This document shows, piece after piece, positions 2,144 through 58,797 of a stretch of DNA of 64,000 bases. Source of the stretch: Botryllus schlosseri (lineage: Eukaryota). The DNA is taken from contig CM119371.1 of the NCBI GenBank assembly GCA_051294905.1, positions 5,458,001-5,522,000 on the forward strand, written 5' to 3'. Below the pieces are notes generated by a model. That model had not been told where the DNA came from. It did not search any database and saw only the letters and a list, made by a program, of their open reading frames with translations. The first letter of the stretch is position 1. Each line of letters opens with the position of its first letter. Both the position numbers and the translations under genes were made by a program.

Positions 2144-3151
2144 TCATCCAGAATGGCTATTAATATGAATCTTGAGAGTATCCTTCCGAAAGAATGCTTT
2201 CCCACATATATCACATCCATAATTTTCAACGCCAGCATGGATTTTCATATGTTGTTTGAGGTTACCATTCTGAGCGAATGCTTTACCACAAATATAGCAT
2301 GTAATGTTTTTGACGGGAGCATGGATATTCATATGACGCTTACGGCCATCCTTATGAGTGAATGCTTTCCCACATATATCACATTTATGGTGTCTGATAC
2401 CAGTATGCATATCCATATGACGCGATAGTTTGCTCTTCTGAATGAATGTTCTCCCACATATATCACATTCATGATTTTTAACACCAGCATGGATATCGAT
2501 ATGGTGTTTGAGGTCGAATTTCCACAAAAATGTATTCCCACATATGTCACATTTATGATTTTTGTTACCGGCATGCATGTCCATATGACGCGTGACGCTA
2601 TCCTTACGAGTGAATGCTTTCCCACATATATAATTTATGACGCCAGCATGCATATCTACATGGCGCTTGAGCGCACCTTTCTGAGTAAATGCTTTCCCAC
2701 ATATCTCACATTTCTGATCTTTGTTACCGGCATGCATATCCATGTGTGTCGAGAGGTGGCTCTTCCGAATGAATTTTTTCCCACATATATAACATTGATG
2801 ATTTTTGTTACCGGCATGCATATCCATATGCGACTTGAGGTTGCACTTATGAAAGAATGCTTTCCCACATATCTCACATTTCTGATCTTTGTTACCGGCA
2901 TGCATATCCATGTGTGTCGAGAGGTGGCTCTTCCGAATGAATTTTTTCCCACATATATAACATTGATGATTTTTGTTACCGGCATGCATATCCATATGCG
3001 ACTTGAGGTTGCACTTATGAAAGAATGCTTTCCCACATATATCACAGTTATGATTCTTGATGCCAGCATGTGAATAAGTGTTAGGCTGGCAGTCAACTTT
3101 TTGAGAGAACGGTTTCTTGGCTATATCGCATGGATGATCATTCACCTTCAT
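2144..3151 (-). CDS. Poly-C2H2 zinc-finger protein (ZNF-A): 10 intact fingers, 1 broken, degenerate N-terminal finger
   Basis: 335-aa ORF of CxxC-x12-HxxxH repeats with HAG(N/V/I)KNH linkers. Plausible splice acceptor (TTTGTTTAG, AG at 3231-3230) about 80 nt upstream of the ATG. Confidence 0.88.
   Translation of the reverse strand: MKVNDHPCDIAKKPFSQKVDCQPNTYSHAGIKNHNCDICGKAFFHKCNLKSHMDMHAGNKNHQCYICGKKFIRKSHLSTHMDMHAGNKDQKCEICGKAFFHKCNLKSHMDMHAGNKNHQCYICGKKFIRKSHLSTHMDMHAGNKDQKCEICGKAFTQKGALKRHVDMHAGVINYICGKAFTRKDSVTRHMDMHAGNKNHKCDICGNTFLWKFDLKHHIDIHAGVKNHECDICGRTFIQKSKLSRHMDMHTGIRHHKCDICGKAFTHKDGRKRHMNIHAPVKNITCYICGKAFAQNGNLKQHMKIHAGVENYGCDICGKAFFRKDTLKIHINSHSG
2688..3040. repeat. Exact 168-bp (two-finger) tandem duplication inside ZNF-A
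   Basis: AATGCTTTCCCACATAT recurs at 2688, 2856 and 3024. The two intervening units read identically. Confidence 0.92.
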
Positions 3152-3679
3152 GTGGAAGTGCTCATCACAAGTTCAGAATATGCATTTATTCATTACACCA
3201 CCTGCTATGTGTTTGAGCGTGTAATAAATCTAAACAAATTGAATCATTAAAATGTGAACAACACATTTGCAATACTTGCGTATCGGAATTTAGTAGTCAG
3301 TTTTAGTTCTAGCTGCATGTTAAGAAAAATAGGCTCCAGAACAACTATGAAAACACTGTAGTCGTTCGACATAAATTGTGATACTGGTTGCACAATGTTT
3401 TCACAGCCACTTCTGGTTAACAGACATCACTACTAACAGTGGCATATCTGCAGGTTGTTTCAGGGGTCAAAACTTCTTCCAGTACCATTCTTTCAAATGC
3501 ATTTCCATTCTGATATGATAAATATTAGTGATTTACCTTGGAACTGATCTAGTTAGTTAATTGCGGATTATTGAATGTTGACAGTTGTAAATTTAATTCT
3601 GGTTTTAAAATTTCGAAAATCAAGCGGTTTGCATATGTATGATTGCGACGTCGAGAATGATATGACTTAATCGAAAGCC

Positions 3680-10162: not shown

Positions 10163-11608
10163 TCACTCATAGTTTTTGACTTCGATATGTGTAATCACAT
10201 GCGTTTTCAAGTTACTGAGATGAATAAACGCTTTTCCACAGATCTGACACGCATAGTTTTTGACTCCATTATGTGTATTTTCATGTTGTTTCAAGTTACC
10301 AAGCTGGGTAAACGCTTTTCCGCAGATCTGACAGTCATAGTTTATGACTCCGGTATGTGTATGATTGTGTCTTATGAAGACACTAAGCCGATTAAAAGCT
10401 TTTCCGCAGATCTGACACTCATAGTCTTTGACTCCGGTATGTGTATGTCCATGTGTTTTCAAGTTACCGAGATGAATAAACGCTTTTCCACAGATCTGAC
10501 ACGCATAGTTTTTGACTCCATTATGTGTATTTTCATGTTGTTTCAAGTTACTAAGCTGGGGAAATGCTTTTCCACAGATCTGACACTCATAGTTTTTGAC
10601 TCCGGTATGTGTATGTCCATGTCTTATGAAGACACTAAGCCGATTAAAAGCTTTTCCGCAGATCTGACACTCATAGTCTTTGACTCCGGTATGTGTATGT
10701 CCATGTGTTTTCAAGTTACTGAGATGAATAAAAGCTTTTCCGCAAATCTGACACTCATAGTTTTTGACTCCAGTATGTGTATTCTCATGTGTTTTCAAGT
10801 GACTGAGCTGAATAAACGCTTTTCCACAGATCTGACACGCATAGTTCTTGACTCCATTATGCGTATTTTCATGTTGTTTCAAGTTACCAAGCTGGGTAAA
10901 AGCTTTTCCGCAGATCTGACACTCATAGTCTTTGACTCCGGTATGTGTATGTTTGTGTCTTTTCAAGACACTAAGCTGATTAAAAGCTTTTCCGCAGATC
11001 TGACACTCATAGTCTTTGACTCCGGTATGTGTATTCTCATGTGTTTTCAAGTGACAGAGCTGAATAAACGCTTTTCCACAGATCTGACAAGCATAGTTTT
11101 TGATTCCATTATGTGTATTTTCATGTCGTTTCAAGTTACTAAGCCAGTTAAACGCTTTTCCGCAGATCTGACACCCATAGTTTTTGACTCCAGTATGTAT
11201 AGTTCCATGTGTTTTGAGGTCGCCAACCCGCACAAACGCTTTTCCGCAGATCAGACATCCATAGTTTTTTACTCCGGTATGTGTATTCTCATGTGTTTTC
11301 AAGTGACTGAGCTGAATAAACGCTTTTCCACAGATCTGACACGCATAGTTTTTGACTCCATTATGTGTATTTTCATGTCGTTTCAAGTTACCAAGCCGGG
11401 TGAACGCTTTTCCGCAGATCTGACATCCATAGTTTTTTACTCCAGTATGTGTATGTCCATGGCGTTTCAAGTGACCAAGCTGGATAAACATTTTTCCACA
11501 GATCTCACATTCAGTATTTTTATCTATAAGGTGGAATCGCAAGTGAGCCTTCAATCCGTCGTTACGATGGAAGCTCTTTCCACAGATCCAGCACATCTTC
11601 TTTGTCAT
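10163..11608 (-). CDS. Poly-C2H2 zinc-finger protein (ZNF-B): 17 fingers
   Basis: 481-aa ORF with 28-aa period and H(T/N)GVK(N/D)Y linkers. Acceptor TTCTGTATTTTAG (AG at 11749-11748) upstream. The ORF ends at a TGA occupying a Cys codon position, followed by two further degenerate fingers to about 10025. Confidence 0.9.
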   Translation of the reverse strand: MTKKMCWICGKSFHRNDGLKAHLRFHLIDKNTECEICGKMFIQLGHLKRHGHTHTGVKNYGCQICGKAFTRLGNLKRHENTHNGVKNYACQICGKAFIQLSHLKTHENTHTGVKNYGCLICGKAFVRVGDLKTHGTIHTGVKNYGCQICGKAFNWLSNLKRHENTHNGIKNYACQICGKAFIQLCHLKTHENTHTGVKDYECQICGKAFNQLSVLKRHKHTHTGVKDYECQICGKAFTQLGNLKQHENTHNGVKNYACQICGKAFIQLSHLKTHENTHTGVKNYECQICGKAFIHLSNLKTHGHTHTGVKDYECQICGKAFNRLSVFIRHGHTHTGVKNYECQICGKAFPQLSNLKQHENTHNGVKNYACQICGKAFIHLGNLKTHGHTHTGVKDYECQICGKAFNRLSVFIRHNHTHTGVINYDCQICGKAFTQLGNLKQHENTHNGVKNYACQICGKAFIHLSNLKTHVITHIEVKNYE

Positions 11609-12002
11609 TCTTCTGGATTATCTTTATGTTACTTTACTTCTTCAAGAATCACACATCAACCGATCTCTGCTTGAAAACGAGTATTCAACGATAGCTTGGA
11701 ATGAGTCAGTACATAGTATTATAATTCTTAAATTATAGCAACCAAGTCTAAAATACAGAAAGAATTAGCAAAATTGGAGCAGTGTGATAAATAACAATAT
11801 CCAAGAATTACAAACTTATGATCTAATAATACCAGTTTAGTAGAATTATCAGGCATTGTGATGATCGGCAACCTGACAATTCAGACGAGTACGGTAGTTA
11901 CTCATGGATGTTTCGCACATACTTTTCAGATAACAATTAGCAATAGCAATAGATCACCTGCACTAGCCAACAGAGGAATGTGTTTGACAATCTTTCGAAG
12001 AC

Positions 12003-32836: not shown

Positions 32837-34941
32837 GTTGGTACTACATTGCCACACTTGAAGACACCCCATAGTTACCCTAGACAAGATGTCCTTATGT
32901 TCGGTATGCTCCTTATTGCCAAAATGAAAGGCACCCTTTCAGAAATTAGGAGTATTGCGACATTTGCGAGTTGCGTCTGATCCGTGGTCCGCTGTTTACA
33001 TTGTGGTCTTTGTAGTAGTCCGCTCGGTCCGCAGTTCCCCTCGTTCCGCCGTTTAGTATTGCAAGTTCCGCTAGTTCCGCGGTCCGCTCGTTCCGCCGTT
33101 TAGTATTGAGCTATTTTGTTATGGTCCGCTCGGTCCGCAGTTCCGCTCGGTCCGCCGTTTAGTATTGCAAGTTCCGCTAGTTCCGCGGTCCGCTCGTTCC
33201 GCCGTTTAGTATTGAGCTATTTTGTTATGGTCCGCTTGGTCCGCAGTTCCGCTCGGTCCGCCGTTTAGTATTACATGTTCCGCTGTTCCGCGGTCCGCCG
33301 TTTAGAGTTGCCCCACAATCAGCTAACGGAGCGAGAAATACACGTCTGCACTCGGCGACTGACTAAAGCGACTGCCCATTAAGCATTGCATTACCATCAA
33401 GCTTACTTTAGGCTGCAGAGAGAAGATTGTGCCACCACGACTTGATAGAATTCGTGCTCTTCTACTATAGGGTTGAATTCAACTCAAGTTGAATCAAGAA
33501 GTCTACAACAGCAAAAGTGGCACGAATATAGCATACGAACTAGGCAAACGTTTCCTATGGATCAGCAAACCCAGTAGTAGGCTATCTCGACTCGACCTAA
33601 ATCCATGTGTCCAGAAAGAGAAACATATGTAGTAGCCCATAGATGGCGAAGGATTGTTAACATTATACAAACAGGCTGTTGCACTTGCACCACTTGGCAC
33701 CTTGGCAGCAGATAAAGTGACCTGGACCTAATATTTCGATATGCACCTATATGCTAACATCAATTCCATATCGCTACAATTCTAACATCAAATACTTCCT
33801 TAGGTGCTCATATAAACAGCACTTGATAACCAGATCTAATGTGCTGTTAACAAATTTACACTGCTCTGGTTGAAGAAATTCGAAAGTGCCAATGTTCCCT
33901 ACGGTCATCCCTAGAAGACGGAACAGCGGAAACAGCGGAACCAACGGTGCTAACCAGCATGAAAATGTGCCAAAATTCCGTAATTTGGCTTCTAAATGCG
34001 TCAATTGGCAACACTGGCAATAATTCTTCTCTCCGGCAGCCCCTCACTTCTGGTTACGAAACCAGTGTGCCCGAGTCCGGATTTTGAAATGCTCAAAATC
34101 CAAGTCCAACCTGTTTTTTAAAAATCACAATCCTGTCCGATCCGGGTCCGACATTTTTTTTCAAAATCACAATCCGGTCCGATCCGGTACCAACGAAAAT
34201 AACCCATAATCCTGATCCTGTCCAATCCAATGCTCATCTCTGCCGTACAAACTGCCGCCTCGAAATCGCAATTGCTGACAGTCAATTCAAAAAATAACCT
34301 AACCGTTAATATCGCTGGTCAGCCCGTTTCCAACACAGATAATGCCAAATATCTCGGAGTTTTACTGGACTCGAACATGTCCTGGAAGAGTCATATTCAA
34401 TCCCTAGAAACTAAATTATCACCGAAGTGCGGCCTGTTCTACAGCCTTGGGCGCTTCATGCCAGCATGGGTTCTCCTGATACTCTTTAAATCCTTAATCC
34501 AATCGAAGTTACATTATGGCATCCTCTGTTGGGGGGCTGCCAGTAAAACTGCACTCAAGCCACTGCAGAAACTACAGCATAAAGTGCTCCGAATCATAGC
34601 TAGGGCCCCAAAGGGGCCTGGCTGCCCATCCAATAAGTCGCTGCTGAAGAGATTCGGCGTCCTAAACATAGAAGATATGCGGAAACTAGAAATCGCCAAG
34701 TTTATGTATCAGTTTCACTGCGGTCGTTGCCCCGAATATTTCAATGACTTCTTTACCTCTGAATCAAAAGCGCACAAGTACAACACACGCGCGTCCACGT
34801 CGTCCAAATATCATATGATCGACCGAAAAGATCATCGCTCCATCAAATATGCCGGACCTGATGTGTGGAACAGTATCCCGCCGGCCATCCGACAGTCGAC
34901 GAGCATGTCCACATTCAAGTCGAAATACAAGCAATTACTAC

Positions 34942-35320
34942 TGTGGAACGCCCTGCGCCCTCTCACGGTTCATACACTTTGTAAGATACAACATCATTAT
35001 GGTACATCGCCTATATCTGTATATCACGTGACTTATATCTTTCTTCTCGCAACCACGTGACTTACCATTTATCAGCTCGTGCATTTCAATTACAAACTAG
35101 ACTCATCTGCGATTTCCTACTGTATATTCCATACATATTCGACCAATATATCTATCTGAGGCAATACTGTCGTTGCATTCACGTTGAAGTTGTCAGATCC
35201 AGGACTAACGCAGGGACGTGCGTCTACTACTAAAGAGCTAAGTATATCTACCCAGCCACACATTACGTGGGACTCAGGTTACAACTCTAGCAGGTTATCA
35301 GACGCCATATCTGGTCTGCA
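34942..35320 (+). repeat. 5' LTR
   Basis: TGTGGAAC...GGTCTGCA. No difference from 41703-42081 seen by eye. Confidence 0.95.
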
Positions 35321-37762
35321 TGGTGCCAACTCGTGAGATGATTTCAGCTTCAACGAAGGACGAATCGCCTCCTACACAATTGGACTTACAACTGCTATGG
35401 AGCCATCCAGGACTTTTCCAGACTTTCACGGTAAATCCGTTTATTTGACTTCGAATTTCGGGAATGCATTTTGCAGTGAGAATGATTTATCTCACTTGGC
35501 TTTATCGGCTAGCAGCAAATTTCCTCGTTATTGCTCGATTCGTGCTTTCTATATAATTATATTAGTTGTTTGTGCTCCTATATTCAATGCTATAACATTC
35601 AGAGAACCAGATTTGAGTGATACTCTGACACTGACAAGACGTTGTTCATTGGTTTCGTTTTTATATTACGGCCTTAAAAACTATTATTTAAATCTTGACG
35701 TCTGGCTTTCTAACGAAATTATCACATCCATTCTGCGTCGGGAATTACACTGTCGGCCGCCTGATAAAATCGCTTCTCTACCCCGCGAAATCTAATAATA
35801 ACCACCGATCCACTATTCAATATTTTTATATAGAACTTCACTTTCGCACGATTAGCCTACCTGACTCGTTTACCAAACCATTTGCTTACAGTTGTTTAAT
35901 TGTTCAACAACTCCATTTCGATTTTTATTATAAATTTTGCGGTTTTCCTACCCTCATATTACCGCATAAATCACTACCAATCACCGTGGTTATTTACCAA
36001 TCTATTTTTGTTCGTTTTGTTATATTCACGGCATTTCCGTGGAACATAACTACCAATCCCATTATTTTAATTTCATAATATTCCTTTAAACCTAATTCAT
36101 ACATTACTTTCTTTTACGGTTCTAACTTCCACCTATTCATTCGTATCGCGATTTTATGTGTAATTCATGCGACATTTACTTTTGCGCGTATTTAAGCGCT
36201 GCCTTTTTAACTACCACCGTCAATGTCAATTCGATAACAATAGTGACGCGGCTTTTCGGCCGACTATAACATTGCATTCCACCGGGGTTTAATATGATAA
36301 TTCTACGGCAAATTCGGCTCTTTTTAACCGAGAATTTAGATCTCGGCTATGAACTCTTAAGATATACCAGTAGCACTGGGAATTGGGATTTTATTATTAA
36401 CTTTATTTTTCATAACGTCAATTCATCTTATGTACGCGCATTCGCATAACCTCGCTTTTGCTACAATTTCTCATAATTAGATTCGATTTTAATCACATCT
36501 TGGCGTTACTTAAAACTCAGCCTTATGCTGGAATTTGTAAATACGGAATTTGTTTCCCAATTTTTTTAAACATTGACGTCATTACATTTTTATACTAGGT
36601 CGTTGACATATTCGCTTCTAATCTTTACGTTAATAAGTACGCTTTAACACGTTGCACAATTCTTTTTTTTCCATTATTATGTCCTAGCTTAATACCTACC
36701 CGCGATAACGTAATCTGAACAATTTCAGATTTTACAACCTAGTTACATTCGATTAACGATACATATCTTTTACCCGCAATCCCATTTGGACGCAATATTA
36801 TCTAAATATCCCGTGTTATATTCTGGCAACGGACACTCCCGTTTCATATATGCTACTCCGACCTAGGAAATCAAGAATTGTTTCGGCTTATGTGTTGTGA
36901 TCCAAGGTACTTTTTTCGACCCGGGGGTATCCGAGTCTGTTCTAAAAGCGTCGGCCACGGCATTGCATACGCTGGCCCGGAACTTCCGCCCTGATCAAGC
37001 GGTTGGACGGGGTCAGTGTTGTAATTAAACTCGTGTGTCTCCAGCGCTCAGACTCGCGATATTTACGAAATCTGATACTGACGTTCACACCACGATCTGA
37101 CTCATTTCTTTGATCAACTAGGAAGTCCGTACTTACAAAAGCGTTACAGTCCATATGTATATGATATATATACTTTAATGTGAAGCACGATTCTTACTTA
37201 CGCAATTGTGCATTTCCTGTCGCGGCGTGTTTAACGGCACACGTCAATTTATTTCCGGAAACCTTTTTTATATCTGGATAGCATATGGCGCGCAGATTCA
37301 GCGATATGTCTGGATTTGTGGTATACCATGCTGTGTACATCGCTAAGGGACTTTTTTTGACATGACTGCGTGTTCGCAGCGCTAAATTCGTACATTCCAT
37401 TAGGCTACCTAACAATACAACATTTTTCGTGATTTCGGCTATTGTTATTACTTCTCTTTACATTTTTACACCCTACTTTCACGACATTACTTCTTTATAT
37501 AATTAAATGACGAATTCCCCGCGTTACGCTAAAATTGCATTCATCTTTACATGTTAATATTCCATTTCTATATACTTTTGAGCTGATCAATACACCCGGC
37601 TAACCCGACATAATTCCCATTCACTTCGAGATTCCGTACACTTTTATTAATTTCTACTTGAAAGCTCAAATTACTCACAAGGCTTATATAACCGCCTTGC
37701 GTCGCTCCGTCACGTATGGAATCGATTCAATACTTAGTACCTACCTACGCTTACATTATAGC

Positions 37763-40060
37763 CACTGGCGTAGCCAGCGAGGGGCGAAAGGGGCGATCGC
37801 CCCCCCCAAAATTTTATGAAAATTTTTCGTAAAATCAATAAATATGACATTATTTTAGGGCGGATGAATGCAACCTAAAAATTTCTTCGCGCTTCGCGCG
37901 ATTTAGTGTCTATGATCATGACTGTCTTGATTTTATTATCGGTGTCCCGAAAAAAAATCTTACGCAAATACCCACAATTGATTTTAGCTGCATTCTTAAC
38001 TATGAGAATACAACAGTACCAGTAGATACACGAGAGTAACTCAAGGTCGTCGGGTTGATTGAGTTTAGGGTTGTCAGTTCAGTATGGGGATTGGGGACTG
38101 TTAGCTCCGACAATTCCCGTTACGGGACACACGAAGACATATAAAGTAGGTTACATGCGACTCCGCAAAGTGCGCTCCCAAAATGATTGACCGACCGACG
38201 CATGTATTCGATATAGATTTTCGGGTACTTAAATGGCTGGCGCCCAATGATCCTGTCCGTGTAATCAGACTTCTCCGACATGAATGCGACTGGCACAGGA
38301 AAATATCGCCACCTCCCTTTAAAAAGTGCTAATTTGAAATCGCACGAGTCTGATCAAAGGAGTTTTGTAATTTGGTCTGGTATATATATCAGCAATTCCA
38401 ATCTCTAAACTAGCATCAATCTTTACCAGAGGTCAGCACTAAATAACCGTGCTTCAACGAAGTAATTATTAAGAATGGAATCCACTTGCTCATAACACGC
38501 ACCAATATTATTAATCAAATACTTTGATTTACTCAAAAACATGTACGCTCCGCGCGACTAGGTCCGAAATGCACACTGCTTTTCAACTGGAAGCTTCCAT
38601 AGGGTATGTGTGTGCGTGCGTCTAAGAATCGTTTGAATAAAGGGTAGTGATGAAATTGCCCATGGCAGGATGTACGGTTCTGCGAGGTGTTCCCACGGGA
38701 GAGCTTCCCTAAACTCATAAAAATCCCCCCCCCCCCCCCCGCAATAAAAAATGTAATTCTAGCTACGACCTTGTGTGTGAGAGATCTCTTGAGTGGTGAC
38801 AGCTTTCTCCGCAAGTCATGAAGTAACAGCAATAAATGACAACTGTCCCGTCCAGCGTCCACCCTATACAAACTCTAAATCAGTGGTTCTCAACCTTTTT
38901 GTCGTCGCGGACCCTCTTTGCACCTTCACGTAGGCTACCCCGGCGGACCCCCAGTTCTTATTTCAAATTTGCCTCTATTATCATGCAACCTTCATCTGTC
39001 TTGTGCAATTATTATCTGTAGGCTAGTGATAAACAACAGCGAGATGACCTTTCTTGAAAATAACACCGACTTTTTATTATTTTAAAGCGAATTCTGTAGC
39101 TGCATTTCTTGAAATACAGGGCTATGTCTTGAAAATCCACGTCGTCGATTTGATATGAACGAGTGCCGAGAATCCATTTCCACAGAGATCGGTGGTGGCG
39201 AATGTAATAATAACGCGTAACGCGTCAGACGACACATTTGGTTATGATGGCAACATATATACATGGATCAATATATCCTCCAGCCTAGTCATTTCTATCT
39301 AGCAGCTCATCGTGAAGTTATTCTGGAATAGCGGTCGGTGTATTTCATAGGAGAAAATGGATCTCGGCGTACAATTATTTCCAAAACCCCAGCAAAACAT
39401 CCCTAAACAGCAATGTGTTCGTATAAGTAGGCTATTGGCAATTAAAATGACTTTGCACGGTGGAATATTTCATCTCAGACGGCCATTCTCTGTTTATGTG
39501 AGTCCTGAACTTTCAGCAGTTATGAAGCGAAAGTGCTTCATCATCTCTCTAATTTAAAACAAACCAAAAATAGTTTATTATTATTAGGTTATCAACCATT
39601 TTGCAAATTTGGAGTTTTCGTGGATCCCTTGAAAAGGCTTTGCGGATCACCGGTTGAGAACCACTGCTCTAAATAGTCTTGCCGTGTGTTATGAACATAG
39701 TTCAAGTGTACTAGCCCTGAATGTTCGATGACACCACTTCTATCAGCTTTGCCGGTAAATCTGATAATGACAATGTATTTGCAATATGCAAGTAACAATA
39801 TAATGAACAATTTTCATTCTTAAACCAAAAATTTTTCGCGCTTCGCGCCAAAGTATTGACGTCAGAGTTTTCTACAATCACACATCACTTTATGTGAGCG
39901 GAATATATGCATAAAGATCGCGTCAGATGTTGTGTTAATCATCCAATAAGGGCCAAGACCATCGTTTTAGCCCATTTTTCCTTATCTTTAGGCGGGAGGG
40001 GCTCATTTACGTCATCGAATTTTTCGCCCCCCCCAAATATTTTTTCTGGCTACGCCCTTG
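37763..40060. mobile_element. Composite non-autonomous hAT element, copy 1 (inside the LTR element)
   Basis: TIRs CACTGGCGTAGCCAG / CTGGCTACGCCCTTG. Exact TSD ATTATAGC. Near-identical inverted copy at 58798-61090. Confidence 0.95.
38881..39666 (-). mobile_element. Charlie/Buster-type deletion derivative nested in composite copy 1
   Basis: TIRs CAGTGGTTCTCAACC / GGTTGAGAACCACTG. TSD CTCTAAAT. Remnant PNVSSDALRVIITFATTDLCGNGFSALVHIKS resembles the hAT C-terminal dimerisation motif. Confidence 0.92.
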
Positions 40061-41702
40061 ATTATAGCGTATACTCCCTATCGTATCATCCCTATCGGTG
40101 CAGATTTTCATTACTTCATATCTGGTCCGCTGAAATACAATGTGTTTATTGTATTTACCTTCTTTTTCAATTTGTCATTAGCCATTAGGCTACTTTTATT
40201 GCTATTATTATTTTCCTACTTTGTGAAATAGCCTTTTTGCTGCCGATATTGCTTTCGCATCCCAGATTCGTCGTCGTCTGCCAACGGGTCTATCGCGAAC
40301 CGCCGAAATGCTCACTACTGCACAACATTCCTCCGCTCTCCGATTCCGGCCTATGTCAACATTTCGGGACATACAAGTTCAACATGGCTTTGGTAACACC
40401 ACGTATTATACGCATTTTAAAGCCGACTTCAACAGTCGTGAAGAATATTCGCACAACAGGCGATGCGCGTTTTAACCTTGGCGGAGTGAACTAATTGGAT
40501 CTAAATACAATCGTTATTGAGCAATGAGCATTGACTGTTAATTAATCCAGGCAGGTTCGCGACCCACGGTGCACGGTTTAACTGTATATAAATAATTATT
40601 CGGTCTTCCTAAAGACTGATGGACATTTGACATTTCCATCGCGATGAATTTCCTAATCCTTGAAATATTAGCATTCATGAACTTTTTCTATTATATTATA
40701 TTAATTTTCGTCAATCGCACGTGGAAACCACGCTTCTCTTGCATGGCCGGTTATCGCGGGAACAATCCCGTAACCCGGATACCCAAAGTGGATTTTGATT
40801 GACAGACATTTCCCGCAACCTCTTCCGAGATACTGATTTGTTTTGCCTACATTTTGAGAGATACTTGCTACTTGGTTTGTATAATTTTCCCCTATTGCGG
40901 CAGACTTAACGCCGCCGCCCCCGTACCTTCTAATGTGATAATTGGTCTTCCCCGCTGTCGTGGGATTTTCGGCGGCTAACAATAACACACATCTATCCCA
41001 TTTCCCACACTAATTACCTATTCGTCATGCCGTATTCCGCGGCGCCGTTGTTTGTCATATATCGAACCGATTGTCGGCCATTTTGTATTCAATTGTATTC
41101 AATTTTTCCTTTTTCATTTTAATACAGCTTTCATAAAATTGCCTTTTACAAGCCGTTCTGGTATCTTGAACCACGTGTTTCGACTAATTTCAAAAGTAGT
41201 TTTGACTATAATATGCTCCCAAACCATACACTAGATTCCGCTTATAGGATTTTGCCTTTACAAATAACAGACACTCATTTTCGAGTTACCACCAATTCGT
41301 TCTAGCGTATGACGCATTCGCCATACCCAATGTCAATTCCTTTGTGAACATATTTTTTCTTTCATTTATTGTTCTTTTAAATAAAATACAAAAATTGCCT
41401 CAGATATAACCAATTCGCCATTTTGACTATATCTAACCTAGCCTTAACGTGTTATCAATACACTATGCGGTTTCATTGCTATCATGTTGTATAAATAGTG
41501 CGGTCATACAATATCGCATTTTAAATTGACGTTATCACCCTTCTACCAATACTTTATTAACTACACACTTCGGCCTTACCTCGTTAAACCACATGCTATG
41601 TGTTATATGTTGAAATTATTTCGTTTCGTAATCTTACTGCTATTCAATGCATGTAAATTTCATTTTCTATTGTCGCTAATCACGCCTTTTTAGCAGAGGC
41701 GA

Positions 41703-42081
41703 TGTGGAACGCCCTGCGCCCTCTCACGGTTCATACACTTTGTAAGATACAACATCATTATGGTACATCGCCTATATCTGTATATCACGTGACTTATATC
41801 TTTCTTCTCGCAACCACGTGACTTACCATTTATCAGCTCGTGCATTTCAATTACAAACTAGACTCATCTGCGATTTCCTACTGTATATTCCATACATATT
41901 CGACCAATATATCTATCTGAGGCAATACTGTCGTTGCATTCACGTTGAAGTTGTCAGATCCAGGACTAACGCAGGGACGTGCGTCTACTACTAAAGAGCT
42001 AAGTATATCTACCCAGCCACACATTACGTGGGACTCAGGTTACAACTCTAGCAGGTTATCAGACGCCATATCTGGTCTGCA
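41703..42081 (+). repeat. 3' LTR
   Basis: Direct repeat of 34942-35320, followed by TSD CTAC. Confidence 0.95.
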
Positions 42082-42407
42082 CTACTAAATAAATACAGTC
42101 CATCCTCAAGATTACCGGACCACGACTGACCTATCGATCTCGCTTCCAATGACATGCCGCCCTATTTCTTGTCGCTTTCTTTTTCTATACTGTATTCTTT
42201 ACTTTCATTCAGTGTGCATGCCTCCTCTTTACTACGCCTAGGCCAAGGTGGGTGTCCGATTCCATTGACAAATCCAAGTCGCTTCGACATCTTCCTGTCT
42301 ATTCATTGTATCGCATTTTTTGTGGTGTATTGAACTGATAAAATTGCTAATAAACCAATGATGATGATGATGATGCCAACTCCGGACCACAGGGTAGGTT
42401 CGATCAC

Positions 42408-42920
42408 GTTTACAATAAGAACAATTTTGTTCACAATAAGAACAGTCTCATGTTCACAATAACAACAGTCGCTATATTCACAATAACATCAGTCGCAGCA
42501 CCAACATATTCCCCGGACACTTTGTCAGAGTGGCAACATGGTACGAACACAACCCAGACATGAAGTACGAACACCCCCAGACACGATGTCCGAGTGTCAA
42601 CGCAGTCCGAACACACGCCAGACACGATGTCCGAGTGTCAACGCAGTCCGAACACACCCAGACACGGTGTCCGAACGCCCCCAGACATGATGTTCGAACA
42701 TGATGTCCGAACATCCTCCATACACGTTGTCCGAACTCGAACAGTCTCATGTTCACAATAAGAACAACCATGTTCACAATAAGAACAGTCTCATGTTCAC
42801 AATAAGAACAGTCTCATGTTGACAATAAGAGCAGTCATGTTCACAATAAGAACAGTCTCATGTTCACAATAGGAACAGTCATATTCACAATAAGAACAAT
42901 CTCATGTTCACAATAAGAAC
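42408..42920. repeat. Compound tandem repeat: 21-23-bp (ATGTTCACAATAAGAACAGTCTC)n flanking about 41-bp (CCAGACACGATGTCCGA..)n
   Basis: Directly visible. Probably the modular terminus of a foldback-type element. Confidence 0.8.
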
Positions 42921-43858
42921 GCATATTTATACGTGTTTTGACCTCATCAGTTGACGAAATGAATTTCAGTTAACTCAAAAAGCACATAATATATAAAGAA
43001 TATGCCACTAGTTGTCGACATTTGGCACTTTCAACGACGGCATAGATAGAACGGGTGAATGGATACTTTGTCTCAACAAATTACACCTCCTCAATCTTTT
43101 TCAACAGCCAACCCCTACATCTTGACAGCTGGCCAGTAGCAAAGTAGCCTACTTCTACTTATCGGCGTTCTCAATCCGACTTACTCGAATGTCTTCGTCT
43201 TTGCACTACTTCTCGCAACTCTAGTTACATGACATACTTTGTATTTTGAAAAGTATAACGAAATTTAGGACAAGTCTGTGAGACTATATCCCTTTTACGA
43301 GTGAATGTGTCACAAAAATTGGACAAAACACCTGTATCACGGTAACAGAATATCTTTCAAATATTGGAACTATACATAGTGTCGTCCTTTATTGTGTTCG
43401 TCCAAACAATACATATTACCATTTCGAAAATACACACCTAAGATTAACTGCTTGTAGCACACCTTAACCAAATCAGTTTTTTTCAAATACAGTAGTCACC
43501 ACACTACTTTTCAGGTATTTCCTGATCTGTTACCGCTAGTGGCTAGTATTTTTGAAATGTCTGAAAAATCGCCAGTTCTACTCGTGATTCAGTGGAAATT
43601 TACCTCGTGACTTTGATTTCTACTTCAAATCGAGTAGCAAGGTCAGACTACTTTTGACCACTCCTGCATCAAAACTGTGACGCCAAACAAAGGCTTTTGC
43701 GAAAATTCATTTCGACATCTATTTCGATAAATACTATCAGCTCGATTTACAGGAGTTGGAATATGGAAACGAACAATACATTCCTATTCAGCTTAGATGA
43801 ATAAACATGTAGAAAATATATACAGATGTATTGCTCGTTGTATTGAGCGTATCAAGAT

Positions 43859-54897: not shown

Positions 54898-56025
54898 TCA
54901 AGATTTTTGACGACAGCATGTATTCATATGTTGCATGAGTTTTCTCTTCCTGGTATATGCTGTTCCACATATGTCACAGTGATGATTCTTGACGCCAGCA
55001 TGGCTATCCACATGAAGCTTCAGGTAACTATTCCGTGTAAATGCTAATCCACATATTTCACATTTATGATTTTTGACGTCAGCATGAATTTTCAGATGAA
55101 TGTTGCAGTTGCTCTTCTGTGTGAATGCTCTGCCACATACTTCACATTTATAATTTTTATTGCCCGCATGAATATTCACATGTATCTTCAGGCTACTCTT
55201 CTGCGTGAATGCTTTACCACATATCTCACATAGATGAGTTTTAATTTCTGCATGCATATCCATATGACGCGTGAGGCTGGATTTCTCAATGAATTCTCTC
55301 CCACATACTTCACATTTATGATTCTTGATCCCGTGATGAGTTTTCATATGATGCTTGAGGCTGGACTTCTCAGTATATGCTTTCCCACATACCTCACATT
55401 TCTGATTCGTGATAGTAGTATGAGATTCCATATGATGAATAAGACCACTCTTCCTAGTGAATGCTTTTCCACATATTTCACATTCATGATTTTTCAAGTA
55501 ATCATGAACAACCATATGATTCCTGAGGTTACTCTTCCGAGAGAATGCTTTTCCACATATATCACATTCATACTTTTTCATGCCCAAATGCATATCCATA
55601 TGACACTGGAGGTAGATCTTCCGAATAAATACTTTTTGGCATATATGACATTCGTAGTTTTTGACGCCAGCGTGGGTATTCACATGGACCTGGAGGCTAC
55701 ATTTGAACGTGAAGACTTTCCCACATATATCACATTTATGGTCTTTGACGCCAGCATGGGTATTCATGTGACCCCTTAAGTGACTCTTCAAGTTATATGC
55801 TTTTCCACATATATCACATTTATGGTTTTTGATGCCGGTATGCGTATCGATGTGACGTTTGAGCTCGTTTTTCAGTAAAAATGCTTTACCACAATAACGA
55901 CATTCATGATTCTTGATGCCAGTATGTCTATTCATATGAGTACTGAGGTGGCCCTTCGTAGTAAATGCTTTCCCGCATATCTCACACTCATCAATTTTGA
56001 CGCTGTCATGCACATACATTTTCAT
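54898..56025 (-). CDS. Poly-C2H2 zinc-finger protein (ZNF-C): 12 C2H2 fingers plus a terminal CCHC-like finger
   Basis: 375-aa ORF with H(A/T)G(V/I)KNH linkers, closest in style to ZNF-A. Upstream acceptor region at about 56212 resembles that of ZNF-A. Confidence 0.9.
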   Translation of the reverse strand: MKMYVHDSVKIDECEICGKAFTTKGHLSTHMNRHTGIKNHECRYCGKAFLLKNELKRHIDTHTGIKNHKCDICGKAYNLKSHLRGHMNTHAGVKDHKCDICGKVFTFKCSLQVHVNTHAGVKNYECHICQKVFIRKIYLQCHMDMHLGMKKYECDICGKAFSRKSNLRNHMVVHDYLKNHECEICGKAFTRKSGLIHHMESHTTITNQKCEVCGKAYTEKSSLKHHMKTHHGIKNHKCEVCGREFIEKSSLTRHMDMHAEIKTHLCEICGKAFTQKSSLKIHVNIHAGNKNYKCEVCGRAFTQKSNCNIHLKIHADVKNHKCEICGLAFTRNSYLKLHVDSHAGVKNHHCDICGTAYTRKRKLMQHMNTCCRQKS

Positions 56026-58797
56026 GTTCCGAGAAAACGCTTCCTTATCACTATCGCATCGACGATCTTTGTAATCAACAGTTAGTATATTTTACTCCAT
56101 GTCGATGATCTTCACAGCTTCACAGAACGCTTTTATGACAGTAGAGATATCATCCAACCAATATCACAGGCTTTTGAACAGACATTGCTAACTCTGTTTA
56201 GCGTATAAATCCTAACTGCATGATGATATAACTACTTCTGGAATGTATGAAAGTGTAGAACTAAGCAAAGTGGACAATTAGATTGTATAGAGCAGTGGTT
56301 CTTCACCGCCGGTCCGGGGACCAGTGCCGGTTCACGACGACCTTTCTGCTGGTCCGCCAGGTATCTTAAAATTTTATACTTTAATTTCAAGATGCAAAAT
56401 GTTGAAAACTTGTCATTTTTTACGTGAAGAACACATCGAATTTAAACATATTTTGAACTCTTGAGGTAAGATTTGCCCTGGCATGATCGATTAAACTTGG
56501 ACCTGGGCATAGCATACGGCCCTTGGGCTAAATGCGGCTCGTGACGAGATTCTAACAGGCCCCAGAAAAGTATAGCCTGGAATTTAGAACATAAAACCTA
56601 CTTTGGAATACTAATGTGTGAAATAAATCCTAAGGCTGCATAAACTGAATCGGAAATGTGATCCTGTTTTCATCTGTGTTGTAAATTAGTGATTATGAAG
56701 CCTACCTATAGGTCGTACAATTTGGATTCAAAATACTGCTTGTATAGGAAAGTATACCGTAACAATTATAGACAAAAGTAACGGTTTCAGATAGTTCAAA
56801 ATTTTCTCTTGCTGTCGTTTCATCACAAATTAACCGGTCTGTGATTTATATTGTTATGACATGCGTGTTCAATCTATAAACCGTAAAACAAGTCAATCAG
56901 TGCACGTCAGCACTGAGCAGGGGTAACCCAAAAACGATGAACAGGCATATGCTAAAAATAGAGGTGGTGGCAGGAGGGTGACATTTGAAGAAGACATGAA
57001 ACACTAAATATTTGTTTACTCGAATGAGGGAAATGAGTCATTGGTGAGCAGGTACCCGTGTTTGGAGATATATTCTGAATCGGCATTATGAGGAAAATGC
57101 ACTGAAATACTAACACTCGTTGCTGGCTGAGGCCGAGAGAGCACGAATTCCGGAGCATTTGCCAGAGAAACTCTCAAAACAACGAATCTGGATTTCACGC
57201 TACAAACAGCCCGGGACCAAGACCAGCATGTAATATCCAAAATACATTTTTATGTCCCCATAAATAAAAGAGTGCAGAGAAATGTGAATTAATTGTGTTA
57301 AGAGTGATTCGTGCTTCACATGGCTTGGCATATTGTCACTTGAAGAATCAAAATATTTTTTTGGTAAATGAACTCTCACTTCCTTACAGCCTAAATTAAC
57401 ACACCCACTTAGCTAACAGCTTGTGTTAACAATGGAATTCACTGTTCTCCTTTTAGAATTAAAATACGCCACGAAATATGGTTTAAACTTTGGGCCGGGC
57501 CGGCAAACCTAATTTTTGCTTCTCACTTTGCACGCTTAAAAAACCCATTGTTCACCCTTGATTCAACTGACAGTTCAAGCCGTCTCCGGTGACAACATGC
57601 CACCGACAAGTACGAACTTAGTCGCTAAACCGCGCTGTTTACACGATCATTTTTTCGATTTATTCATTTTGTGGATGATCCCATATCGCAGTCACCAGGT
57701 GTTTTTGTGCAGCGTATTGGATTCATTGTATGACTGGCGGAAGTGGGAAATGGGCAAGGTAGCACAAGAAAGTGCTTGTTTCGACTCAGAGACGCTTCTT
57801 GTCGAAAAGAAGAATATTATTCGAGTTGTCATATTGGCGTAGTCGATTAGTTCACGGCCTTCGGCGCGAAAGACGGCAATCAACTTTCGGCGCTAGCGCA
57901 TTTATCTGAGAAAAATAATGTTACTTCGACTCAGCAGACTACTTACCGTAAAATGACATGAATTCCCCTATGAACATATTAATTACGAAGGAAACTCTCT
58001 AAACCGTCTCTCTCTAGTTACATAGTGCAAAAAAAAAACAGTTTCATGACTGGACATTAGGGCTGTTCAAAAAAAGCTTTTTCCCTGAATTTTGCTGGCT
58101 GCGTGATTCGTCGAGTTGCCTTGAAAAACGGCATACACCAAATTTTAATTCATTCCAACCAATATTCGCGGATTACGTACAGTTTGAAAATTTTTAATTT
58201 ACCAATAGATGCAAAAAAAATTGTTTTCCAATTTTTTCTGTCAACCCCATGAAATTGTTGCGCTGTCCTCAAAGACGATGCAAAACAAATTTGACTCAAT
58301 TCCAACCCGTAGAAGCAGAGTTATTTGAGTTTTTCGATGATAATTCTCAGCTTATCCACCAATCAAGGACCATATTCATCACAAGTGTTACGCAGAATAT
58401 CATTCCTTACCAAATCATGTTGGCCGGAGAGTGATACTGGTTTTGCTCTACAACTGTCGAGTTTTTAGAGAAGCAACGTAACGAATCAAACCATAAATAT
58501 CTGGCATGCTGGGCTAGAGGTGAAACCACCGATCAAATGTGATTTTCCGTAGAGCCTGCAGCTATAATCGAGCTCTCGCCAGCAGTACCTGTGATGTTGG
58601 TAGCTCTGGGTAGTTCAATTGATATGCCTAATGATTATACATCACGATTTACCTCAGTTTGACTCTTTAGTAAGCAGGGTTCATGAGTTCGTCGTAGCAG
58701 CTTCAAGGTTTCATCAAACAAAACAAGGTCAAGAGCACTCTGGTGCACTATGAATTACAAATACAGCTGCTTCACAAAAACTTTAAATACGTGACTT

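Follow-up and report, generated by a model that had tools for sequence, protein, structure and literature searches.

A young-looking, gene-less LTR retrotransposon of Botryllus schlosseri as a probable member of a non-autonomous, LARD-like family

Long terminal repeat (LTR) retrotransposons that have kept their LTRs, a primer-binding site (PBS) and a polypurine tract (PPT) and carry no coding sequence are described, in the passages of PMC3286476 and PMC7215508 on such elements, as the large retrotransposon derivatives (LARDs) of plants, the terminal-repeat retrotransposons in miniature (TRIMs) and the mammalian MaLR. The same passages report 38 non-autonomous LTR families without a master copy from Culex quinquefasciatus (PMC3286476) and tandem LTR-interior arrays for Cassandra (PMC7215508). 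In the mouse ETn is moved by MusD and VL30 by murine leukaemia virus, as stated in the part of PMC6466679 that deals with them. The subject of the present work is a complete LTR element at 34942-42081 (+ strand) of a 64,000-nucleotide stretch of the Botryllus schlosseri genome, referred to below as the window (C1:5458001-5522000; the contig is 41.8 Mb long and the genome comprises 495.5 Mb in 219 contigs). The element is very probably a recently inserted LARD-like retrotransposon, non-autonomous and non-coding, that works like ETn and VL30 and exists in tens of interior-bearing copies.

With the LARDs, as outlined in parts of PMC7215508 and PMC3286476, it shares LTRs, PBS- and PPT-type sites, a several-kb interior devoid of gag, pol and env, a uniform multi-copy state and a presumptive dependence on a helper. 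Its LTRs measure 379 bp and are flanked by a CTAC target-site duplication (TSD), no gag, pol or env was found in any member (six elements scanned, 37 places read), and 14 of the 15 full-length copies form a uniform group of 4.66-5.04 kb, the remaining one having 6.27 kb with an extra insert. It differs from LARDs in its animal host, in the shortness of its LTRs and in a weakly indicated conserved RNA structure. Like ETn and VL30 it is a non-coding LTR element of ~5 kb in an animal genome and would be mobilised by a helper, VL30 being co-packaged with its own (PMC6466679, same part); unlike the Botryllus element, for which neither was found, these two have known helpers and ETn keeps retroviral traces and helper-like LTRs. 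The Culex cqUNK families are likewise animal LTR elements that have a PBS and a TSD but neither coding sequence nor an identifiable master copy (PMC3286476, corresponding passages); they carry internal tandem repeats, of which the window element has none. Arrays of the LTR-interior-LTR-interior type link Cassandra (PMC7215508, passage on arrays) with the window family, which forms them with a period of ~4335 bp on two contigs; Cassandra is, however, a short TRIM with 5S-derived LTRs, whereas the Botryllus units are ~4.3 kb long and known from search tables alone. At ~4.8 kb once its nested insert is subtracted, the element exceeds the few hundred bp given for TRIMs in the same portion of PMC3286476.

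Structure, copies and age of the element

An earlier note on this DNA, made from its letters only, described the architecture correctly. Exact alignment gave 100 % identity of the two LTRs, CTAC was confirmed in both flanks, and PBS-like and PPT-like sites adjoin the 5' and the 3' LTR, respectively. The interior lacks a long open reading frame (ORF), the longest stop-to-stop frame of the element being 152 aa (35337-35795), and its + strand is T-rich and G-poor (T.355, A.261, C.228, G.156). The PPT-like run is retained in 11 of 11 family copies shown. No tRNA was detected in the window, and comparison of the element with known RNA families returned one sub-threshold match to a miRNA model (E = 0.73).

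Genome searches, in which only the best 40-150 candidates were scored, showed that the element is multi-copy. The LTR query yielded 349 first-look candidates, with 41 of the scored matches at 92-100 %, and the 5', central and 3' interior queries yielded 90, 63 and 87 candidates. A 33-nt stretch of the leader was located at 54 genome places, in 40 of them exactly. Sequence was read at 37 of these, and all proved to be non-coding copies, deletion derivatives or truncations with no coding capacity of their own, long ORFs occurring only in nested elements. The non-coding state was thus not acquired in place, as the earlier note had argued.

The head-to-tail arrays of family units are found at C12:20397516-20489488 (8 leader places) and C16:22450516-22538741 (9). 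Their blocks lie in opposite orientation, the units resemble the subfamily of copy L034, and no match to the LTR-start pattern is listed within either region. The copy at L047:1390-5901 (C5:3018300-3024200) is split by ~6.3 kb with frames of 522 and 190 aa, neither of which has a Pfam match; an atlas placement of the larger frame near Plavaka-type transposases (score 0.93) is a lead only.

Most of the copies are young. LTR pairs are 100 % identical in 7 of the 15 full-length copies and 97.9-99.7 % identical in the others, which differ by 1-6 substitutions and at most one gap (the pairs of L045, L046 and L048 were compared over 306-316 nt only). The 4-bp duplications are perfect in all 12 copies examined and differ in sequence among them, apart from GTAT at two loci and ACGT at two, which marks the copies as products of true transposition; four further copies whose LTR starts escaped the search pattern are excluded from this count. 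Interior identity is 87-96 % among the seven youngest copies and 81-98 % (median 90 %) among all 15. Since LTR pairs are identical despite diverged interiors, several diverged, gene-less lineages must have been active recently. Young non-coding copies whose interiors differ by 4-13 % also point to a lineage retrotransposing in trans at fairly constant length, in agreement with the earlier note.

The window copy is itself a mosaic. Its best non-self matches are 90 % identical in the 5' 1508 nt of the interior and 96 % identical in the central 480 nt; in the 3' 1634 nt identity is 94 %, increasing to 98-99 % in the last 466-533 nt, and in the LTR it is 98 %.

Coding tests, composition and rival readings

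The earlier note had interpreted the ~4.1-kb interior as a Gypsy gag-pol eroded by substitution at near full length while the lineage went on transposing in trans. In keeping with this, the interior length of ~3.9-4.3 kb resembles a compact gag-pol and is fairly uniform among copies, the peptide strings quoted in the note stand in Gypsy order, and such ghosts exist, ETn being tied to MusD via 'traces of retroviral homology' (PMC6466679, in the part on these elements). The idea was confronted with translations read through stops (X at stops) and scanned against Pfam with E up to 10 or up to 1. The scans covered all six frames of the window copy, L034 and the sister-family copy L071 (see below) and the three sense frames of L035, L046 and L037, together with 100-aa pieces at the motifs that the note had quoted. 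No reverse transcriptase (RT), RNase H, integrase, protease or gag was found in the six elements or in the motif pieces. The profile signal expected at the quoted strings was therefore missing, as was, from every scanned frame, the protease-RT-RNase H-integrase pol that characterises Ty3/Gypsy. Only unrelated sub-threshold matches (F-box, TGF_beta, IBV_3B, DUF7051) were returned. A genuine Gypsy gag-protease and an RNase H fragment of the same genome (L073), compared with 16 elements, gave noise only, the sole exception (E = 0.018) being due to a frame that reads into the LTR.

The three sense frames contain 65, 56 and 63 stops per 1358 codons vs 72 expected from composition, so no frame was spared. 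The quoted peptides do stand at the places given in the earlier note, but their scores are no better than those of simulated sequence: the score of the RNase H-like string (26) was reached by 24 of 200 composition-matched first-order Markov simulations and that of the ELRSFLGL-like string by 110 of 200. Where the window copy departs from the sister family, the differences are distributed 52/47/50 over the three codon phases (p = 0.9), with no three-base periodicity. With no domain, about random stops and no codon periodicity, a relation of the interior to pol cannot be demonstrated, and the Gypsy assignment loses its basis; a 4-bp duplication fits several superfamilies and does not decide Gypsy membership. 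Erosion by substitution at full length is neither shown nor excluded by these tests, any coding ancestry being undetectable, and an eroded gag-pol appears quite improbable. The observation made in the earlier note is confirmed and its interpretation partly supported.

The T-rich, G-poor sense strand is common to all copies and to the sister family. Among 434 singletons in 15 copies the rates of C>T and G>A are equal (0.085 each), which argues against APOBEC-type editing. A>T is about twice as frequent per site as T>A (45/757 vs 30/1063) and a weaker asymmetry places T>C above A>G (82/1063 vs 41/757). Changes to and from T and G nearly balance, which gives the composition the look of a steady state; all these counts are small.

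Could the copies instead be old, the identity of their LTRs having arisen by gene conversion or assembly collapse in a family no longer active? The window copy, whose nearest relatives reach only 90-96 % in most of the interior and in which a transposon is already nested, might suggest so. Perfect four-base duplications in 12 of 12 copies would, however, be unlikely after several percent decay, and the seven identical LTR pairs and the few substitutions in the other eight argue in the same direction. Moreover, a unique interior lies between the window LTRs, on a contig of 41.8 Mb, and stretches of this interior are matched without difference by short contigs of run X1. An old, inactive family is therefore considered very improbable.

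Least probable of all, hardly to be expected, is a semi-autonomous element that depends in cis on a small Gag-like or accessory protein encoded by its 132-codon 5' frame. This frame has a conserved ATG start and is open in 23 of 28 copies, but its ratio of non-synonymous to synonymous polymorphism (pN/pS) of 0.89 is not below that of shifted control frames (0.85, 0.81), its codon positions vary equally, it has no Pfam match and the sister family has unrelated sequence in its place. The gag-like start that the earlier note saw at 35397 was rejected as part of a protein gene on the same grounds. The first 150 nt of the frame are simply conserved as nucleotides (nucleotide diversity pi 0.03 vs 0.09).

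Sister family, shared blocks and the search for a partner

The reading as a young, non-autonomous LARD-like element was extended by the finding of a sister family. The first 25 nt of the LTR occur at 105 genome places, which include a second set of pairs ~5.1 kb apart. The sister copy L071 (C4:22513486-22519285) has LTRs of 362-368 bp that are 99.5 % identical to each other and ~71 % identical to those of the window family, and a TSD of ACAT; it contains no ORF >170 aa and no Pfam match. At least eight further sister-family pairs are spaced 5.07-5.18 kb apart. Common to both families are the first 25 nt of the LTR, a block of ~52 nt comprising PBS and leader, a related form of the purine tract (seen in L071) and a central segment. 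A degenerate leader pattern was found at 65 places, of which 52 were assigned to the window family and 11 to the sister family, 2 remaining unknown. Diversity is lowest in the leader: pi is 0.03 at 35342-35541 vs ~0.09-0.10 elsewhere in the element.

Two leader-like copies in minus orientation lie 102 nt apart at C11:11576858-11576890 and 11576960-11576992. Beyond the 32 nt that they share with the family their sequence departs from it at once, and the listed matches to family LTRs or interiors include none in the vicinity.

The central segment is 76-77 % identical to the window version in other sister-family copies, and its hairpin part is 86-90 % identical in other window-family copies. Set beside the closer match to L071 (Table 1), this patchwork of identity speaks for recombination between the families, as would be expected if they were packaged together. 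The hairpin of ~100 nt (36947-37048) has z = -2.9, only 1 of 200 shuffles folding as well; 98.2 % of cells are paired in 19 distinct copies, and 31 of 48 pairs are invariant with 1 compensated pair. It is regarded as a candidate cis element, as suggested by folding and comparison of copies.

A mode of propagation resembling that of ETn and VL30 can be proposed. The 5' LTR would drive a full-length RNA, which would be packaged by Gag of an autonomous LTR element via the conserved PBS-leader and the first ~150 nt of the interior, perhaps with the help of the central hairpin. Reverse transcription would be primed at the site adjoining the 5' LTR and plus-strand synthesis would start from the purine tract. 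The integrase of the partner would then join the TG..CA ends to a 4-bp staggered cut. Template switching between co-packaged RNAs would generate mosaic copies, also across sister families.

A partner was searched for by sequence with patterns for the LTR end plus PBS, the PBS, the leader, the LTR start and the degenerate leader. The 755-aa frame of L055 was dismissed as the RT of a nested LINE (long interspersed nuclear element): a 5'-truncated LINE (L055:498-2762; RVT_1, E = 2e-36) is nested in a family copy and, having inserted in frame with the 5' frame of the element, gives a chance open frame. L072 was dismissed as an LTR-like fragment with no ORF of at least 110 aa in 4 kb. The genome is rich in intact LTR elements (1389 rve and 1212 RT_RNaseH_2 candidates, many with frames of 1200-1480 aa). 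When the best 150 of each domain were scored, only three turned out to lie no more than 10 kb from a listed LTR start, and none of these is a convincing partner.

One of the three, C18:120822, is a truncated sister-family LTR abutting another Gypsy. In L073 (C18:117150-119649) a sister-family LTR, truncated at ~342, abuts two coding remnants of opposite orientation, the RNase H fragment (- strand) and a gag-protease frame of 478 aa that includes a CCHC knuckle (+ strand). At C14:16062609 the domain match is on the opposite strand. The third, C3:16793459, lies within an LTR pair 9.1 kb apart and is apparently nested; at sequence level, collinearity with L034 is established for the first 3.4 kb of the copy. 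This family copy (C3:16786946-16796460), with LTR starts 9136 bp apart and its first 3.4 kb covered by L049, holds a same-orientation RT_RNaseH_2 match in a 1349-aa open frame. Seven other places have the same score and six the same frame length, which suggests that an active Gypsy-type family is nested in the C3 copy. A genome search with Retrotrans_gag (PF03732) gave 0 matches and found the controls nowhere either, so it is uninformative.

Several observations weigh against the reading as a young family mobilised in trans. The autonomous partner with the same LTR ends and PBS that the earlier note expected was not found, all pattern matches followed up being non-coding copies, truncations or members of the sister family; trans-mobilisation is accordingly an inference. 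No tRNA matching the PBS-like site was identified, and positions 7-10 of this site vary among subfamilies. Self-priming of the Tf1 type was rejected, the best complement between PBS region and LTR comprising 6-9 nt, G:U pairs included, and differing in its place. RNA structure in the leader has neither thermodynamic (z = -0.07) nor covariation support. The 17 leader places beyond the 37 that were read are tandem-array units seen in search tables alone. A transposon nested inside a copy with identical LTRs means that some residence time has elapsed. Finally, although the interior recurs across the genome as the earlier note anticipated, no near-identical source of the window copy occurs among the scored assembly matches. 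The likeliest explanation is that one haplotype samples part of an insertion pool still segregating in the population; an older insertion with homogenised LTRs would also fit, the intact duplications arguing against it.

More tentatively, the results may be taken to mean that at least two sister families have persisted and diversified without a sequence-related partner in the 219-contig assembly, as a VL30-like guild in a non-mammalian animal that hijacks an unrelated helper via minimal RNA signals. That such families are united only by the 25-nt LTR terminus, the ~52-nt PBS-leader and a hairpin module exchanged by recombination is part of the same proposal, which is possible but rather doubtful as a whole.

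Nested insert, insertion site and implications

The insert that the earlier note had recognised as a hAT element nested in the interior is missing from 10 other family copies compared. Its ends form imperfect terminal inverted repeats (13/15), it has no long ORF and the read-through scan covering it gave no Pfam match. An 8-bp target-site duplication together with short terminal inverted repeats is one criterion for hAT elements; the 8-bp duplication and the imperfect repeats class the insert as hAT-like and non-autonomous. Summed depth in public contigs, which is no copy number, is several-fold to more than tenfold higher on the insert than on the interior of the LTR element and suggests that the insert belongs to a more abundant family.

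The element interrupts a LINE, the frame of which was said to be still open. It is indeed open, but only for 246 codons up to the insertion and 15 beyond it, and the LINE is only a 3' fragment. With the RT protein of a LINE at a related locus (P0001) as tblastn query, only 34335-34943 matches (residues 551-751, 31 % identity); there is no RT part upstream of the fragment, and the fragment has no Pfam match. The uninterrupted form of the LINE corresponds to a joint that skips 7144 bases (7140 + 4, the element and one TSD copy). All 3 DNA-type runs have contigs with such a joint, which also occurs in RNA reads, but because the LINE is multi-copy it may come from paralogues and not from an empty allele. 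Just downstream of the fragment there is an array of ~21-23-nt units (window 42396-42964) and a 41-nt repeat (42513-42657); the repeats at 42396-42964 are possibly the 3' tail region of the LINE.

Three long minus-strand frames with 10-16 C2H2 zinc fingers each (window 2144-3172, 10163-11617 and 54898-56091) place the element in a cluster of zinc-finger genes. No RNA data set was listed as holding the element, and the ~6 % of raw RNA run X24 that was read gave a depth of 0-0.06 across 35505-37310, a figure that gives no verdict on expression. The features of the locus are collected in Table 1.

Table 1. Features of the element and of its insertion site, in window coordinates
Feature	Position	Strand	Remarks
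LINE 3' fragment, C-terminal part of ORF2	34203..34941	+	246 open codons; left of the insertion
TSD CTAC, left copy	34938..34941		4 bp
5' LTR	34942..35320	+	379 bp, TG..CA ends, 100 % identical to 41703-42081
PBS-like site TGGTGCCAACTCGTGAGA	35321..35338	+	adjoins 5' LTR directly
Conserved PBS-leader block, ~52 nt	35321..35372	+	common to sister family; from alignment
Non-coding interior, left part	35321..37762	+	
Short 5' open frame	35397..35798	+	132 codons from ATG; without protein-level constraint
Central segment	36829..37308	+	80-98 % identity (60-nt bins) to sister copy L071
Long imperfect RNA hairpin, candidate cis element	36947..37048	+	inside central segment
8-bp duplication ATTATAGC, left copy	37755..37762		
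Non-autonomous hAT-like DNA transposon	37763..40060		2298 bp, nested in interior
8-bp duplication ATTATAGC, right copy	40061..40068		
Non-coding interior, right part	40069..41702	+	
PPT-like purine run AGCAGAGGCGA	41692..41702	+	directly 5' of 3' LTR
3' LTR	41703..42081	+	379 bp, matches 5' LTR 100 % over 1-379
TSD CTAC, right copy	42082..42085		4 bp
LINE frame continued to stop	42086..42129	+	right flank from 42082 reads LLNKYSPSSRLPDHD, then stop

The finding adds to a known type of parasite and opens no new category. A young-looking gene-less LTR element need not be a decayed autonomous copy; the window element very probably belongs to a diversified, recombining, helper-dependent family. 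For annotation this means that families of this kind belong among the non-autonomous LTR elements and should not be pressed into Gypsy. Three short conserved blocks, namely LTR terminus, PBS-leader and central hairpin, are candidates for the minimal signals recognised by the integrase and Gag of a helper and offer a starting point for finding it.

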